From a virus (taxonomy: Duplodnaviria; Heunggongvirae; Uroviricota; Caudoviricetes), in the IMG/VR virus record IMGVR_UViG_2541047702_000001: a DNA stretch of 36,638 nt, one strand, 5' to 3'. Made by a program: the position numbers and the translations under genes. Shown here in pieces: positions 2,120-25,252 of the stretch. Numbering within the stretch: position 1 is the first letter of the stretch; every line of letters begins with the position of its first letter. The notes under the pieces are model-generated. The model had not been told where the DNA came from and ran no database searches. It worked only from the letters and a program-made list of their open reading frames with translations.

Positions 2120-2416
2120 TCAAATAGAGAAATAAACACAAAAACAAAAAACAACAGGAACAGCAAAATCCAACAGACTTCCCACATCCCACACGCGTGG
2201 ATCAAAACCTCCCCACCACGGCATGTTGATACGTTTCCCTTTCCCAAACTTTTCTATCCAGCGATATTCTGCCTGGGTGTGTTCACGCGCAATGAAGAAC
2301 GTACAACCGGCTATCGCACCGTAAGCCCAGTTTCCGGTAAAAATACCAACCAGTACCTGAGCCGCAAAAGCGCAAAGCGAGTGAAGAAATGGAGTGACAT
2401 CAATGCTCTTAATCAT
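2120..2416 (-). CDS. Small hydrophobic protein translationally coupled to tailspike (function unknown)
   Basis: ATG overlaps the tailspike stop (ATGA at 2413-2416); 98 aa with hydrophobic N- and C-terminal segments. A +1-frame ORF (1930-2247) continues beyond its stop across T5/T6 runs. Confidence 0.5.
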   Translation of the reverse strand: MIKSIDVTPFLHSLCAFAAQVLVGIFTGNWAYGAIAGCTFFIAREHTQAEYRWIEKFGKGKRINMPWWGGFDPRVWDVGSLLDFAVPVVFCFCVYFSI

Positions 2417-4602
2417 GAAACTTCCCCATTGGTTGAAAATATAGCTCCTCCAACGCCAAGTGTATTTCGTGTTGTGCTCAACCTCAGAGGGCTGGAGTCA
2501 GAATTAGAATATCCTGTAGCAGAAATAAAAGATCCTCCACTAATAGTCAACTGCGGAACATCGGCTATATCTGAATAAGTTCTGTCAGCAACAGTATTAT
2601 TTATAGCCACATATGATCCAAAAAAACTTCTTATTGTTTGGTTTTTAACTTTACTTCCTTCAATGGTTATCCTACTACCACAGTCGGCAATAAATCCTGA
2701 ATCTGCATCCAGCGTTGCATTCATAAAAGAAGCTTCAGATCTCTCTACATCAATCCATCTAATATCTTTTGTGGGATTTGCACCAAATACATGACAAATA
2801 TTAGAGTTAAACCTTACACCATCTTGGAGGTGCATTAATTTTTTTATATCTGTACCCCATAGCCTTGGAAAATTAACAGATGCTCCTGCATGGCAATCAA
2901 ATCCCAGCTCAGCCCCTGAGATATCTACAGCCTTTCCTGAAATAACAGCACCAGTGTCTGCATTAACGGCTGTTCCACAATTGCGCATATCATTACCAGC
3001 AACATCAACGCAACCCGCACCATCAATACGCACACCAAGTGCACATCCATAAAAACCTTTTTCAATATTTGGTTCAAGGACTTTACCACTTGTTTCTGCA
3101 TCACTTTCTTCAACGTCATGTCGTCTTGCATCAACATATGCTGTATGAATGCAGGTTAATCCACGATATGAGCAATGTATAGTTTTATGGTCGCGTATAT
3201 TAACATTTGAACCATCTCTTACATTCCATCCTATATAACAATAGCTTGCACTTGACCCCTGAAAATCTGCTTTAACATTATAAATACAATTAACTGACGC
3301 AACCGTACTCTCTGTGCACCGTTCAAACTTGCTTACAGGCATTGATGCCTTGACATTATTTACCAGTTGCAGGGAAGAGTATCTGCTATAAGAAAAATCA
3401 CATACGTAATACCCTTCTGGCATATATGCAGCAACACTTTCCTCATCAGGAGCACATCCGGTATGATATGCACTAATTTTTGCACCAAAACTACCATGAA
3501 TTCCAACGTAGAACTTTCGAGCACCTGAATACGGATAGAAATTAAGTTCAGCTTTTTGAGTTACAATAAATGCACAAACATCGCTATCATCTCTATTTTC
3601 TTCGATCTGAATAGCAAATACAGGACTTTTTGCTGCATCGCAAATGTAAAATAAATACTTGTATTCGTAATACGTTCTAACGATTTTAGTAAACAAACGA
3701 GTGTCAGAGAAAACCACTGAGTCTTCTGATGTTATTTTAATCCAAGACAAATCAACACCTGAACTGAATTCAATTTGATAGTTGATAATATGCCCGGTCT
3801 TAATTCTTATTTCGCAGAAAGCATTACCACCATCCCACATAGGTCTCATTGACTGGGCTGCAATGATTGCATCTTTGAGTGTAGGGTAATCACCCCATTC
3901 GCCAACAGTAATAACAAAAGTATAATATGAGTTAAAAACAGCGGCATTTTTGCCTTTGGATATCAACTCCTTAATCATAAAAATATTATCTTCGTAATCA
4001 CAAGGAGAAATTATATCCCTCATTTTGCTTTGAAATGTTCGTTGTCTTGCCCCGCTTCCTGACGGTATAAACCAACCAAAACCACCAACAACCCCGGCGA
4101 TTGCAGCATCGACATAATTACGCATTGAGCGATTATTTACAGCGTCCTGCTCAAGTGATGGATCTGCAAGGTTAGAAATTCTGTTTTGCTTTGCATCGTA
4201 ATATTTTGCAAGCAAAGATGGTTTCATCAATGCACGTCTGAACCACCCGAAACATCGCTGGATCAGCATCGTCAGGTAGTCAAATGCATCCTCATGAACT
4301 TCGGGGAAAAATTTTCCCTGATTGCGAAGATCAGTCTCCTGCACCACATCAAGCACACGCTCTATCGTAATTCGCCATCCAGCAGCAAGCGGCGACGGGA
4401 GAACCACTTCACCGCCACTATAAGTGCCCGCTCCAGTTACCTTATAACCGGTATCCAGAACCAATTCTGTTACGTTCCCGTTCAGGTCAGACACCTGAAC
4501 AACCAGGTCGGTTTTTTTGAAAATACGGAAGGTATACGGAAATGATGTCGTAACGCCGTTACCGGTGTATTCGTTGTGGTCAACTTCGGTTGAGACCGTC
4601 AT
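2413..4602 (-). CDS. Tailspike / receptor-binding protein with conserved N-terminal virion-attachment domain and C-terminal Cys/Gly-rich probable beta-helix domain
   Basis: 729 aa; N-terminus MTVSTEVDHNEYTGNGVTTSFPYTFRIF... matches the N-terminal domain I recall from epsilon15/phiV10-type tailspikes; GGAG Shine-Dalgarno 8 nt upstream of ATG 4602; C-terminal 500 aa rich in Gly, Cys, Asn, Ser. Confidence 0.7.
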   Translation of the reverse strand: MTVSTEVDHNEYTGNGVTTSFPYTFRIFKKTDLVVQVSDLNGNVTELVLDTGYKVTGAGTYSGGEVVLPSPLAAGWRITIERVLDVVQETDLRNQGKFFPEVHEDAFDYLTMLIQRCFGWFRRALMKPSLLAKYYDAKQNRISNLADPSLEQDAVNNRSMRNYVDAAIAGVVGGFGWFIPSGSGARQRTFQSKMRDIISPCDYEDNIFMIKELISKGKNAAVFNSYYTFVITVGEWGDYPTLKDAIIAAQSMRPMWDGGNAFCEIRIKTGHIINYQIEFSSGVDLSWIKITSEDSVVFSDTRLFTKIVRTYYEYKYLFYICDAAKSPVFAIQIEENRDDSDVCAFIVTQKAELNFYPYSGARKFYVGIHGSFGAKISAYHTGCAPDEESVAAYMPEGYYVCDFSYSRYSSLQLVNNVKASMPVSKFERCTESTVASVNCIYNVKADFQGSSASYCYIGWNVRDGSNVNIRDHKTIHCSYRGLTCIHTAYVDARRHDVEESDAETSGKVLEPNIEKGFYGCALGVRIDGAGCVDVAGNDMRNCGTAVNADTGAVISGKAVDISGAELGFDCHAGASVNFPRLWGTDIKKLMHLQDGVRFNSNICHVFGANPTKDIRWIDVERSEASFMNATLDADSGFIADCGSRITIEGSKVKNQTIRSFFGSYVAINNTVADRTYSDIADVPQLTISGGSFISATGYSNSDSSPLRLSTTRNTLGVGGAIFSTNGEVS

Positions 4603-4797: not shown

Positions 4798-5055
4798 ATG
4801 CAGCAGTATCACTATCCACTGGAAGACGGATTTACCGAAAGGATTCACACGCCGGGAGGCGTCAGGTCACTGGTGGAGGGATCGCACTTGATGAAATTAC
4901 TCCGGGATCTCGATAAGGATGGATTTAATGTCGATGGCCCACTTGCCGAACTGACTGCACTGATTAACTATGTCACCAGCTCACAGATGTCTATGCAGGA
5001 TCTGCAAACACATCTCGACTATTGTGCCGAACAATTACGAAAACAAACCCGGTAA
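4798..5055 (+). CDS. Small LexA-regulated protein, candidate SOS-inducible antirepressor (function inferred from context only)
   Basis: 85 aa, ATG 4798 with ribosome-binding site; LexA box over its promoter; followed by a bidirectional terminator; opposite in orientation to all flanking genes. Confidence 0.5.
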   Translation: MQQYHYPLEDGFTERIHTPGGVRSLVEGSHLMKLLRDLDKDGFNVDGPLAELTALINYVTSSQMSMQDLQTHLDYCAEQLRKQTR

Positions 5056-5061
5056 ATTTAA

Positions 5062-5079
5062 AGGCCGCGAAAGCGGCCT
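5062..5079. terminator. Bidirectional intrinsic terminator hairpin AGGCCGC-GAAA-GCGGCCT between convergent genes
   Basis: 7-bp GC-rich stem; T-rich on the plus strand downstream (CCCTTTT) and on the minus strand (revcomp of 5041-5060 is T-rich). Confidence 0.6.
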
Positions 5080-5087
5080 GTGACATG

Positions 5088-5384
5088 TCACGTCCCTTTT
5101 CTGAATGATAGCCATTCGAAAAATGATGACATTCCACCGCAGACAATAGCAAAGATGATCCCACCAAAGAAGAGAAGGCCAGCCTGCCACCACTCCCACC
5201 GCCATACATCCACAGCGCCAACCATACCAACAATCGCTCCAACAAATGGAATATAGCTCACGATGAAAGCAATGGGGGCTGCAATTATCCAGTGCAATCC
5301 CCACCATGATTCAAGCCCAGCCATAATTGCTGCCAACTGAAAAAGACCAACGACGATATAAACAATGAATCCTATAGCTTGCAT
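5088..5384 (-). CDS. Small integral membrane protein (about 3 TM helices), function unknown; candidate superinfection-exclusion or host-surface-modification accessory protein
   Basis: 98 aa, strongly hydrophobic; AGGTGA ribosome-binding site before ATG 5384; last gene after the ejection-protein genes. Confidence 0.55.
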   Translation of the reverse strand: MQAIGFIVYIVVGLFQLAAIMAGLESWWGLHWIIAAPIAFIVSYIPFVGAIVGMVGAVDVWRWEWWQAGLLFFGGIIFAIVCGGMSSFFEWLSFRKGT

Positions 5385-5396
5385 GTAGTCACCTAT

Positions 5397-5570
5397 TTAC
5401 CCAGTAAAAATAAGAGGCCTCCCCTCAATAAGGCTTGCAACAAGAACTACTCCCTGCACAACAAAGATGAACCAGCAAATAGCTTGAGTCTGAGGGTTAA
5501 GAAAATATTTGTAGCGGTCAATAAATAACAATCCACCAGAAATTATCACACTCAAAATAATTAAAAACAC
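5397..5570 (-). CDS. Small hydrophobic protein (57 aa, 2 predicted TM), not in ORF track (below size cut-off)
   Basis: GTG at 5570 preceded by GGAAG 4 nt upstream, immediately after the stop of the 824-aa gene; translation MFLIILSVIISGGLLFIDRYKYFLNPQTQAICWFIFVVQGVVLVASLIEGRPLIFTG; stop 13 nt before next ATG. Confidence 0.4.
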   Translation of the reverse strand: MFLIILSVIISGGLLFIDRYKYFLNPQTQAICWFIFVVQGVVLVASLIEGRPLIFTG

Positions 5571-5579
5571 AACACTTCC

Positions 5580-8054
5580 TTATTGCGGAGTGACATCCTG
5601 AGGTCGCCACCAGTATGTCTGGTTAAACTCTTTCTTCGAACGTTGCTCCATTTTACGCAAATAGCCTGGTGAAAAATACTCCTGCATCTGATTAAAGATC
5701 ATGTGATCGAGAGCCGCCTTCAAGTACCAGAGATTCGCACCTGGCATCAAACCTTTCCCCAGCTTCACCAGATCACCACCAGTCTGCTCACTCTTCCCTT
5801 CCACAGCATTTAACGGTATGCCCTGAGCAATCTTCACTACGTCATCAACCAGACCAGCTACCGGGCCAAGCATCGACGCCAGCGCGCCGCTTCCGTACCT
5901 AGTGTGATCTGACAATAAAAAGTCACCATAAAGGCCAAGACCACCACCTTTCAGTAGAGCACCAAGCCAGAATTTTGCGGCATCTTCTCCTGTCATCTCT
6001 CGAGGATTACGACCAGACGCAAGGTCGTTAAGTTGTTGCGACAAAGCGCCAAGAATGGTCGTACTGGCAATAAACGTCGCAATATATGCCGCACGCCCAC
6101 CAGCAGACGGCATACCCATAGCGCGTGACCAGTGACGCATAACAACCGAGATAGGGAACGATTTAAACAGGAAAACACTTCTCGTTAATTCACCTTTCCA
6201 TGTTCCACGCTGAATACCAGAACCGGTTATCAGTTGCTCACGTGCTCCCGGTGTAATAACAGCCATATCAACTTCTTCAGTTACGGCACCGAGCAGTTTA
6301 CGCATTGCCTCAAATTTCACGCGTTCAGGCTCACCAAGATGTTTAACTGCTGAATCAGGGATACGCATAATGCTTTCCGGTGTCAGCATCGTATTATTAC
6401 CGTTCCCCCAGTCCTCCTGTTGCGCCAGCTTCCATACGCTCCAGTCTGTGTCAGTAATCCCTTTGCTTTTCAGGATACGAAAATCAGAGTCATCGAGGCT
6501 ACGAAGGTCTGGTGTTCGTGACACTACTTCTCCCAGGCTTCCCATCATGGTTACGCCATAGGCGCGCTTGTGCGCATCTGACCATGCTGTAAGCCCACTG
6601 GCACGCATTACCGCCGTTGCCGCCCAACGAGACACTGACGGCCCCATATTATCCATCGCCCAGCGGTTAACGCTGCCAAGTAGAGATTCCATCGCCAGAC
6701 CAGCGCGGCGCGCCCGCGCAAGTTCTGTACGGTTCGTTGGGTCCATAGCTTCAAGCTGGTTGCGGAATAACTGGTTCATTGGAAGGTTGGTAACCTTCGC
6801 AGACAGATACATGGTTCCAAGATCAGAGAACGATGACAGCAACGCGGATCCGAGTCTGCTGGCAACCAGCCAGTTGCGAATATTGTCAGACCATCGCGCG
6901 ATGTGCGGATTCGCTACAGGCTGTGTCTTTCCGGAAATAAAGTTGTACAGATTCTCTGTGTTGTTCGCCAGCCGCTCGACTTTACCGGTTTTACTCGGGT
7001 TAGCTGTTGCCGTTTCTGCCTTCACCTGATCAAGAAGAGAGCGGAAAACATGATCGGGGTTTGGGCCATATGTTTCCACCAGTGCAATATCTTTACTGAT
7101 ACCTTCCAGGTGACCGACCATGATTTCCCATAGAGAGCGATCGCCATAAAGTTGCTGATATTGCAGATAGGAATCTGCATCTTTGAAATGTATCTGTCGT
7201 GATGCATTACCCCGGTTAGCACGTGCGCCGGAAATTCGCATTCCGGTATCAGTAAGCTTATTCAGCCCACCAGTAGCGATCGTGTTATAAGCCTCTCCAA
7301 GAAATGCAGACAACTCGGCATCGTTCATCAGTTGTCCATCGGCTCGGGTATAATATTTGCGATCCAGCTTACCTATAACATCGCTAACCCACTTATCCTT
7401 TGATACCGCCCCAACCTTTTCCATAGAATGATGTTGAGGGAGCCCCCAGTTTTCGAGATAGCCAATGTCCCCACCAGCATCATTAAACCGGCGGCGCAGT
7501 AGCTCTGTCACTTCTCTCCACGCCTTAGCACCTTTTCTTGCTTTAGCATTGCCAGTATTTTGCCCTCGCATTTCATATACCAGGTCACGTACGCCCGCTT
7601 CATCTTCAAACAGACCAAAAAAGCGAGGATCAACTGCTTCGAATGCCTCCTGCAATTGACTCAATGCATAATCACGAGTGGCTTTTGTTCTGGATTCAAC
7701 AGAGAGGAAATTCGATTTACCGTCTGCATTAAAAGCAATAGTACGGTTAAGAGCGCCAAGTTTCCCATCAGCCCCTTGATAGCTATTGATAAATTTATCC
7801 AATCTCTGACGTGCGGCTATAGTGAGGGCCACACGACGTTTCTTTAATGCCGCTTCTCGCTGTAATTCTTCAGATGCCAATTGTGCTGCACGATATAGCC
7901 GCTCTGATTCGGAAAGTTGTCTCCACGACATCGGGTCATCACGAGCAATGGAGCGCATATTTCGATAAATGCGGTCTTCAATGTTCTGTATTTCTCGCGC
8001 CGTTAACGTGCGCTGCGCCGCCTGCTGGACCGCTTGTATACATTCCTGTCTCAT
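5580..8054 (-). CDS. Large internal virion / DNA-ejection protein (podovirus-type)
   Basis: 824 aa; one of three consecutive very large proteins between tail genes and tailspike; C-terminal region with hydrophobic/Gly-rich segments; no enzymatic motif recognised. Confidence 0.5.
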   Translation of the reverse strand: MRQECIQAVQQAAQRTLTAREIQNIEDRIYRNMRSIARDDPMSWRQLSESERLYRAAQLASEELQREAALKKRRVALTIAARQRLDKFINSYQGADGKLGALNRTIAFNADGKSNFLSVESRTKATRDYALSQLQEAFEAVDPRFFGLFEDEAGVRDLVYEMRGQNTGNAKARKGAKAWREVTELLRRRFNDAGGDIGYLENWGLPQHHSMEKVGAVSKDKWVSDVIGKLDRKYYTRADGQLMNDAELSAFLGEAYNTIATGGLNKLTDTGMRISGARANRGNASRQIHFKDADSYLQYQQLYGDRSLWEIMVGHLEGISKDIALVETYGPNPDHVFRSLLDQVKAETATANPSKTGKVERLANNTENLYNFISGKTQPVANPHIARWSDNIRNWLVASRLGSALLSSFSDLGTMYLSAKVTNLPMNQLFRNQLEAMDPTNRTELARARRAGLAMESLLGSVNRWAMDNMGPSVSRWAATAVMRASGLTAWSDAHKRAYGVTMMGSLGEVVSRTPDLRSLDDSDFRILKSKGITDTDWSVWKLAQQEDWGNGNNTMLTPESIMRIPDSAVKHLGEPERVKFEAMRKLLGAVTEEVDMAVITPGAREQLITGSGIQRGTWKGELTRSVFLFKSFPISVVMRHWSRAMGMPSAGGRAAYIATFIASTTILGALSQQLNDLASGRNPREMTGEDAAKFWLGALLKGGGLGLYGDFLLSDHTRYGSGALASMLGPVAGLVDDVVKIAQGIPLNAVEGKSEQTGGDLVKLGKGLMPGANLWYLKAALDHMIFNQMQEYFSPGYLRKMEQRSKKEFNQTYWWRPQDVTPQ

Positions 8055-21983: not shown

Positions 21984-22060
21984 GTGGCATTAGCTCAGTT
22001 GGACAGAGCAACCGCCTTCTAAGCGGTTGGTCGCAGGTTCGAATCCTGCATGCCACGCCA
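21984..22060 (+). tRNA. tRNA-Arg, anticodon UCU (reads AGA)
   Basis: Manual cloverleaf: acceptor GTGGCAT/ATGCCAC, D-stem GCTC/GAGC, anticodon stem ACCGC/GCGGT with loop CTTCTAA, T-stem GCAGG/CCTGC with loop TTCGAAT, discriminator G and encoded CCA; 77 nt. Confidence 0.85.
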
Positions 22061-24792: not shown

Positions 24793-24824
24793 AACCACCG
24801 TGGTAATAGTTACCGTTGTGGTAA
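24792..24824. promoter_or_regulatory. Two tandem operator-like sites (TAACC-ACCGT-GGTAA at 24792-24806, 1 mismatch; TTACC-GTTGT-GGTAA at 24810-24824, exact) overlapping the terS initiation region
   Basis: Appears as direct repeat GTGGTAATAGT(T)ACC x2 just upstream of ATG 24792. Confidence 0.5.
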
Positions 24825-24843
24825 TAGTACCATGCAAAATAAA

Positions 24844-24861: not shown

Positions 24862-24910
24862 AGTATTCAAAACACATCAAATTCATCATGCATAATCTAC
24901 TCGTGACATG

Positions 24911-25252
24911 TCACACTATTAATTTCGTTTCATGCCAGCCTTTAGTCACCCAGCATTGCGAGTCACCATTACACGGGCATGAATTCACAGGAACTCTCTC
25001 GCCGCACTTACCGCAACGTGTTCTGCTGATCGATTTTATACGCCCGTGCACGCGTGCATCATCCTGGCGGATCAGTAACGCTATATACTCACCAAATTCG
25101 TAAGGCGCACGCCCGGGGCGACGCGTGGCACAGTTACGCTCCAGCATTTCAATTTCCTGAGCATCAAGCACAATTTCCAGCTTACGCACACCAGATGCAG
25201 CTTGTCTGGCTCTCTGAGCGGCTTTGCGCTCTGCTGCTGATTTAGCCATCAA
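24911..25252 (-). CDS. Cys-rich small protein (putative zinc-binding), candidate late-gene regulator by position
   Basis: 113 aa; C-terminal CGKCGERVPVNSCPCNGDSQC cluster; stop codon lies inside palindrome GTGACATGTCAC; last gene before the terminator and terS. Confidence 0.35.
   Translation of the reverse strand: MMAKSAAERKAAQRARQAASGVRKLEIVLDAQEIEMLERNCATRRPGRAPYEFGEYIALLIRQDDARVHGRIKSISRTRCGKCGERVPVNSCPCNGDSQCWVTKGWHETKLIV

Follow-up and report, generated by a model that had tools for sequence, protein, structure and literature searches.

Cargo genes for small membrane proteins beside the ejection genes and tailspike of a phiV10-like Uetakevirus

What are the small hydrophobic proteins whose genes accompany the ejection genes and the tailspike of this phage? 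The window, by which we mean the whole 36,638-nucleotide stretch of viral DNA analyzed here (IMG/VR record IMGVR_UViG_2541047702_000001), is a phiV10-like Uetakevirus, i.e., a temperate podovirus of the epsilon15 type, as the earlier note on this DNA had thought. The region around the genes for a 57-aa protein and a 98-aa protein (98A) shares 95-99% identity with phiV10, the O157 typing phages, and phiv142-3. On the minus strand, three genes for ejection (internal virion) proteins of 862 aa (with an SLT, lytic transglycosylase domain), 600 aa, and 824 aa are followed by the 57-aa gene, 98A, a palindrome and terminator, the tailspike gene, a second 98-aa gene (98B), and the lysis cassette; a homologue of epsilon15 gp19 on the plus strand lies between the terminator and the tailspike gene. 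Slot 1 is our name for the interval whose borders, both conserved, are the end of the last ejection gene on one side and the palindrome and terminator on the other. The features are as follows.

5580..8054, minus strand: gene for the third and last ejection (internal virion) protein, 824 aa; phrog_684 virion structural protein; upstream border of slot 1
5397..5570, minus strand: gene for the 57-aa mini-protein, a hairpin of two transmembrane (TM) helices; GTG start at 5570; basic loop DRYKY; predicted N-out/C-out
5088..5384, minus strand: 98A, a 98-aa 3-TM protein rich in Trp and Gly; phrog_3075; basic C-terminal tail predicted to be cytoplasmic
5080..5091, no strand assigned: perfect 12-bp palindrome GTGACATGTCAC; supplies the TGA of 98A; conserved downstream border of slot 1
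5062..5079, minus strand: rho-independent terminator AGGCCGC-TTTC-GCGGCCT with a T-rich tail; common to the convergent plus-strand gene
4798..5055, plus strand: homologue of epsilon15 gp19 and phiV10 p24, 85 aa counted from the ATG; phrog_450; assigned by synteny; convergent with 98A
2413..4602, minus strand: tailspike, 729 aa; phrog_5662; conserved N-terminal head-binding part
2120..2416, minus strand: 98B, a 98-aa membrane protein; phrog_1443; its ATG overlaps the tailspike TGA as ATGA

The neighbors of the small genes have clear counterparts. The 824-aa gene is 98.6% identical in DNA to phiV10 p20, and its product is homologous to epsilon15 gp17, BcepC6B gp17, and VP2 p19. The plus-strand gene at 4798..5055 has a weak C-terminal match to an anti-repressor PHROG and is part of an immI-like variable region. 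The N-terminal 203 aa of the tailspike are 92% identical to EC.W1-9, whereas the remainder is unrelated. The C-terminal receptor-binding part (2413-4002) has a GC content of 37.7% and a GC3 of 24%, versus about 49% for the window, which fits a recently imported specificity module; this part was found in only 1 of 80 related viral loci. A complete lysis cassette with two holins, an endolysin, and Rz/Rz1 occupies 1926-105. Elsewhere in the window, a tRNA-Arg gene (anticodon UCU) is present at 21984-22060 on the plus strand, opposite to the structural genes, in a stretch of small ORFs, about 1.3 kb long, that separates the presumed large-terminase gene (24199-22724) from the presumed portal gene (21337-19658). 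This stretch may be another accessory slot within the late operon.

The earlier note, made from the sequence alone, had placed two ORFs with ribosome-binding sites after the last ejection gene (5397-5570 and 5088-5384) and a third hydrophobic protein coupled to the tailspike (2120-2416), had read all three as membrane proteins, and could name no family for them. Our analysis bears out each of these observations. The 57-aa ORF starts 9 nt past the TAA of the 824-aa ejection gene and is preceded by AGGAAG; it has a GRAVY of 1.31 and two hydrophobic spans. The ATG of 98A, at 5384, lies 12 nt beyond the stop codon of the 57-aa gene and is preceded by AGGTGA. Its TGA falls inside the 12-bp palindrome, and the rho-independent terminator comes next. 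98A has a GRAVY of 1.24 and three hydrophobic spans, and its AlphaFold model (AF2, pLDDT 90) places helices at residues 2-28, 32-59 (kinked at P46), and 65-97. Together, hydropathy and model give 98A a middle helix that is kinked and rich in Gly, loops rich in Trp, and a basic C-terminus. 98B begins at an ATG at 2416 with GGGGAA upstream and is translationally coupled to the tailspike; it has two to three hydrophobic spans, and its AF2 model (pLDDT 90) is that of a three-helix membrane protein.

All three are real genes, on the evidence of their ribosome-binding sites, each at normal spacing, and, for the 57-aa gene and 98A, of their dN/dS. The ratio, which indicates purifying selection on both, is 0.17-0.23 for the 57-aa gene and 0.014-0.045 for 98A against Klebsiella and other homologues, comparisons in which dS is saturated. 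The GC content of the 57-aa gene (36.8%) differs clearly from that of the flanking gene (49.5%); the difference is marginal for 98A (46.5%). A terminator-like hairpin with a T-run is present at 5411-5427 on the minus strand, in the last codons of the 57-aa gene and ahead of the 98A ribosome-binding site. It is not conserved in the Klebsiella version of the gene.

Database searches assigned families but no function. 98A matches phrog_3075 over its full length (E 1.6e-54, residues 1-98 of 98) and 98B matches phrog_1443 (E 2.5e-55), both PHROGs of unknown function, and the 57-aa protein had no match in PHROG, Pfam, or PADLOC. The small proteins gave nothing significant in Pfam or NCBIfam and no matches in PADLOC-DB 2.0 at E<=1, and no PDB or BFVD structure resembles the AlphaFold models. 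The literature on epsilon15, phiV10, Uetakevirus, phiv142-3, gp18, and small membrane sie proteins yielded no experiment or expression data for these families; orf12 of phiv142-3 is 98A, and the phiv142-3 paper deals with orf6 and orf10.

We then asked whether the position of the 57-aa gene and 98A is fixed or variable. Both borders of slot 1 are conserved. The palindrome GTGACATGTCAC keeps this position in epsilon15, phiV10, SPN1S, PAS61, and nearly every Uetakevirus-like locus retrieved, regardless of which small gene comes before it; a count over 110 loci gave 89 with it. The terminator at 5062-5079 is identical in phiV10, where it is annotated as such. The junction AAATAGGTGACTAC-ATG upstream of 98A is likewise kept across slot 1 arrangements, together with the palindrome and terminator downstream. 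Within the window, GTGACATGTCAC occurs exactly twice, at 5080-5091 and at 24903-24914. A 113-aa ORF immediately precedes the second copy, and about 35 nt beyond it comes a terminator-like hairpin, itself upstream of the presumed small-terminase gene; the two copies thus bracket the minus-strand morphogenesis operon. The palindrome may be a regulator-binding site or a recombination anchor. A direct repeat, GGTA(C/A)CTATTACCAC, occurs twice at about 24800-24831 on the minus strand, just downstream of the second palindrome and near the start of the presumed small-terminase ORF.

The content between these borders varies. In phiV10, a non-homologous gene for a 46-aa 2-TM protein (p21) stands between the 98.6%-identical ejection gene and the same terminator; epsilon15 has gp18 (64 aa, 2-TM) in slot 1, and SPN1S (SPN1S_0020) and PAS61 have 46-aa genes. 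The 57-aa gene is directly upstream of 98A in 65 of the 80 IMG/VR loci that carry 98A; in the other 15, the upstream gene encodes a 54-aa or 103-aa TM protein or a signal-peptide protein of 102, 123, or 175 aa. In Cronobacter and Salmonella prophages from genomic loci, 98A has no gene upstream of it within the slot and begins 1-35 nt past the ejection gene. Conversely, the 57-aa gene is present without 98A in prophages of Salmonella Muenchen and Klebsiella oxytoca. Because each occurs without the other, the 57-aa gene and 98A are independent modules. In Vibrio VP2, Pelagibacter Skadi-4, Burkholderia BcepC6B, and Pseudomonas Ab31, a tail-fibre gene follows 3-63 nt past the homologous last ejection gene, so that in these relatives the genes flanking slot 1 are adjacent, as around a moron. 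Of the promoter and terminator that a moron would carry, the terminator is present (5079-5062) and no promoter was found.

The alternative occupants (signal-peptide periplasmic proteins of 102, 123, and 175 aa and 2-TM proteins of 103 and 54 aa) are all envelope-targeted and uncharacterized. They lie at 5621-5992 in L064, L079, and L052, 5684-5992 in L085, 5461-5988 in L095, 5685-5996 in L062, and 5800-5964 in L077. In Cronobacter prophages (L005-L007; 6362-7620 and 10663-12300), this hot spot contains genes for a HicA toxin, for its DUF1902 (HicB-like) partner, and for a Bro-N protein, and gtr-type glucosyltransferase genes lie on the opposite strand past the tailspike.

The earlier note had proposed a conservation check in related prophages, and homologues of all three genes were found there. 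The 57-aa protein has homologues in 13 clusters (Escherichia, Citrobacter, Klebsiella, Salmonella, and Enterobacter). The 57-aa-98A block is present in 221 of 5,426 complete E. coli genomes, nearly always on the chromosome, where it is annotated as two hypothetical proteins. 98A has close homologues in 52 clusters, and a profile search extended the family to 748 clusters at E<=1e-3 (325 at E<=1e-10). The broader alignment (A3) was too diverse for locus searching; a scan of genome contigs with alignment A1 gave six loci. By sequence comparison, 98A belongs to a broad, unnamed family of predicted 3-TM proteins; in some members the domain is fused to DUF805, RDD, or MORN-repeat proteins, and one protein has it four times in tandem.

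98A is linked neither to a given ejection protein nor to a given tailspike. It is 94-100% identical beside ejection proteins that share 28% identity. Fifty of the viral loci with 98A extend as far as the holin gene; in 49 of these, with 98A at 79-100% identity, the tailspike has a receptor-binding part unrelated to that of the window tailspike. 98A is present, too, in Klebsiella, Cronobacter, Salmonella, and Yersinia and in islands outside phages. Distant homologues are autonomous genes beside integrase and Bro-N genes (L118/119) or in a primase/AlpA/integrase island with Abi_2 and SocA genes (L120/121), and another stands behind an opposite-strand gene in a Yersinia prophage (L122). The non-phage contexts are a serine-recombinase island in Microvirga comM, where the gene adjoins one for a DUF6804 protein, and Buttiauxella, where it adjoins umuDC.

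98B is a separate cargo family, unrelated to the 57-aa protein and 98A. The family comprises at least 428 clusters. Its members lie downstream of receptor-binding genes, mostly directly, in podo-, sipho-, and myovirus-type prophages of Escherichia, Aeromonas, and Comamonas. The preceding genes encode Uetakevirus tailspikes, the phage 21 side tail fibre, the Peptidase_S74 fibre of E. coli lambdoid prophages, a GpJ-like fibre (Comamonas), or a P2-type tail fibre (Aeromonas). In EC.W1-9, too, 98B lies past a receptor-binding gene. An invariant polar motif, AREHTQAEYRWI...R.NMPWWGGFD, lies in a basic loop predicted to be cytoplasmic (alignment A4), which suggests a putative specific binding or catalytic site. 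We rejected the idea that 98B is specific for its tailspike's receptor, because a 98B of 85% identity stands beside an unrelated tailspike and another follows the side tail fibre of phage 21; the specificity domains of phage 21 Stf and of the EC.W1-9 receptor-binding protein are unrelated to that of the window tailspike. Distant 98B homologues in lytic Aeromonas phages are not adjacent to fibre genes. Family loci outside the window include L102 (4001-4294) and L111-L115 (5001-5303).

In map position, slot 1 is equivalent to the gene16-gene9 region of P22, where sieA lies (PMC10883804). The order there is gene16-sieA-mnt-arc-ant-gene9, with immI between sieA and gene9. P22, a temperate podovirus, encodes SieA, a multi-TM protein of the inner membrane, in a variable stretch that separates its last ejection gene from its tailspike gene; sieA adjoins an antirepressor/immI-type cassette there (PMC10883804), and not all relatives have it. 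The 57-aa gene and 98A likewise lie between the last ejection gene and the tailspike gene and encode proteins predicted to be in the inner membrane. The likeness does not extend to sequence: a comparison of the 98A profile with P22 SieA gave an hhalign probability of 0.2%, i.e., no relationship, and the motif FxRYPxEAxxFNK of SieA types A-C is absent from all three small proteins. SieA is also larger (164 aa versus 57 and 98 aa). Its gene is convergent to the late operon with an annotated promoter of its own, whereas the window genes are co-oriented with that operon at gaps of 9-12 nt, a difference that we count against exclusion. Finally, exclusion is a demonstrated phenotype for SieA, whereas we infer it for the 57-aa protein and 98A.

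Within the genus, epsilon15 gp18, phiV10 p21, and SPN1S_0020 share with the window genes the same slot past the last ejection gene and the same palindrome and terminator. Like the 57-aa protein, gp18 and p21 are 2-TM hairpins with a short basic loop (SPN1S_0020 matches p21 in size), but hhalign probabilities of 0.4-0.5% between the 57-aa protein and these two indicate no detectable homology. Epsilon15 gp22 (the alpha-polymerase inhibitor) and phiV10 Oac are also small or membrane proteins of the same genus, are encoded next to the tailspike gene, and alter the cell surface. In contrast to the window genes, theirs lie on the opposite strand past the tailspike and their function is bound to a given O-antigen, whereas 98A is not bound to a tailspike type. 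P22 sieA, the epsilon15 conversion genes (gp21 and gp22), and phiV10 oac all lie on the strand opposite to the late genes. Beyond these phages, the HK97 gp15 moron and T4 Imm are small inner-membrane TM proteins that block phage DNA entry and are encoded in or beside structural operons; HK97 gp15 is described as carrying a promoter and a terminator of its own, and the imm gene of T4, a virulent phage, is expressed early.

These observations describe two proteins that are predicted to be membrane-embedded and whose genes are strongly constrained, are optional, shuffle independently of each other, and recur at other cargo sites of mobile elements. The variable slot, the independent occurrence of the two genes, their non-core position, and the absence of homology to SieA or the polymerase inhibitor firmly support the view that the 57-aa gene and 98A are independent, accessory (moron-like) inner-membrane cargo, and not core morphogenetic parts. 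What this cargo does is a matter of weighing alternatives. Slot 1, which lies at the 3' end of the operon for the ejection proteins, would be prone to recombination. From the inner membrane, the 57-aa and 98A proteins would obstruct the entry of DNA from incoming phages, that is, mediate superinfection exclusion at the ejection-protein conduit in a manner functionally like P22 SieA. Map position and protein type make entry exclusion the best fit, and accessory cargo with such a role is the likeliest explanation, which we favor tentatively; its function, its target, and expression in the lysogen are what we infer. Counted against it, no sigma-70-like promoter was detected on the minus strand from 8200 to 5380, in scans that were uninformative both within the window and upstream of the autonomous 98A homologues.

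The main rival, because the 98A domain is so widely distributed, is a membrane function that benefits the lysogen or host and is unrelated to phage entry: the proteins might, for example, confer immunity to a toxin or bacteriocin that targets the membrane, help the cell tolerate envelope stress, or modulate a host transporter. The 748 clusters spread across phyla, the non-phage contexts, and the DUF805, RDD, and MORN fusions suggest a generic membrane function that is not necessarily phage-related, and a dN/dS of about 0.02, independent of the adjoining ejection protein or tailspike, fits a conserved host target. On the other hand, the Enterobacterales neighborhoods inspected, including the 80 IMG/VR loci, are nearly all prophage or satellite hot spots, usually after ejection genes, with Buttiauxella as the exception. 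The inspected neighborhoods had no toxin or bacteriocin gene beside 98A, and fold searches of PDB and BFVD gave no similarity to known immunity proteins. We consider a host-benefit function somewhat unlikely, but a serious contender. The proteins could instead be made from the late operon during the lytic cycle as helpers of the ejection proteins: as membrane chaperones or antidotes, they would prevent freshly synthesized ejection proteins from inserting into the membrane of the producing cell, or, as small hydrophobic components of the virion, they would be ejected along with the DNA. This would agree with the shared strand and tight spacing (gaps of 9 and 12 nt here and 1 nt in Cronobacter, and an ATGA overlap of epsilon15 gp17 and gp18), with the lack of a detected promoter, and with the presence of some small envelope-protein gene in slot 1 of every Uetakevirus examined. 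Yet slot 1 holds non-homologous occupants beside ejection genes that are 98-99% identical, the ejection proteins beside 98A can share as little as 28% identity, VP2, Skadi-4, BcepC6B, and Ab31 have no gene in the slot, and 98A also occurs detached from ejection genes and outside phages. The non-homologous occupants, varying partners, and absence in relatives disfavor an obligatory role in ejection-protein assembly, and we regard the helper reading as improbable.

Two further readings fare worse. Small 2-3-TM proteins of a late operon could control lysis timing as a holin, antiholin, or pinholin-like protein, and 98A has a weak Pfam match to Phage_holin_5_2 (E 0.027). Its 15.2 bits, however, fall short of the 29.2-bit gathering threshold of that family (Phage_holin_5_2 / Hol44), and the complete lysis cassette lies elsewhere (1926-105); on these two grounds, a holin role is very unlikely. 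A charged cytoplasmic C-tail is typical of holins, and the 57-aa protein is without one; the non-phage contexts of 98A also argue against such a role. O-antigen modification (seroconversion), which the earlier note had offered beside superinfection exclusion, would have the 57-aa protein, for example, act as a Wzy-polymerase inhibitor like epsilon15 gp22, which is itself a 66-aa 2-TM protein. The small genes are indeed near the tailspike, and the post-tailspike slot that 98B occupies holds wzy-beta and its inhibitor in epsilon15, oac in phiV10, and gtr-like genes in the Cronobacter prophages. But the hhalign probability of the 57-aa protein with gp22 is 0.15%, no Wzy, Gtr, or Oac gene was found between positions 1 and 5600 of the window, and the known conversion genes are on the opposite strand. 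Moreover, 98A accompanies many unrelated tailspike specificities (49 of 50 loci) in several genera, and 98B, too, recurs beside an unrelated tailspike (85% identity) and after the phage 21 side tail fibre. Because neither tailspike type nor homology nor a partner enzyme points to it, an O-antigen function is the most improbable of these readings. The earlier note's picture of modules appended to the ejection operon stands, with the genes behaving as accessory modules in swap-prone slots; its superinfection-exclusion part is reasonable, and its seroconversion part is unlikely.

A broader interpretation we offer as speculation and think rather unlikely: 98A, as an unnamed, widespread 3-TM domain, would represent a new entry-blocking or defense class carried on prophages, satellites, and integrative islands, and slot 1 of Uetakevirus would be a dedicated exchange site for envelope-acting anti-phage cassettes.

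The 57-aa gene, 98A, and 98B are uncharacterized phage cargo genes for small membrane proteins, well-documented hypothetical genes rather than a demonstrated mechanism. 98A and 98B are flagged here as two uncharacterized, highly conserved membrane families, and slot 1 is a bounded hot spot in which to mine for new envelope-acting phage cargo. About 4% of the complete E. coli genomes carry the 57-aa-98A pair, STEC and APEC lineages among them, and the pair has relatives across Enterobacterales. If the proteins block phage DNA entry, they would shape which phages infect such strains, and this would, if true, bear on phage typing and on phage therapy against O157 and other STEC.
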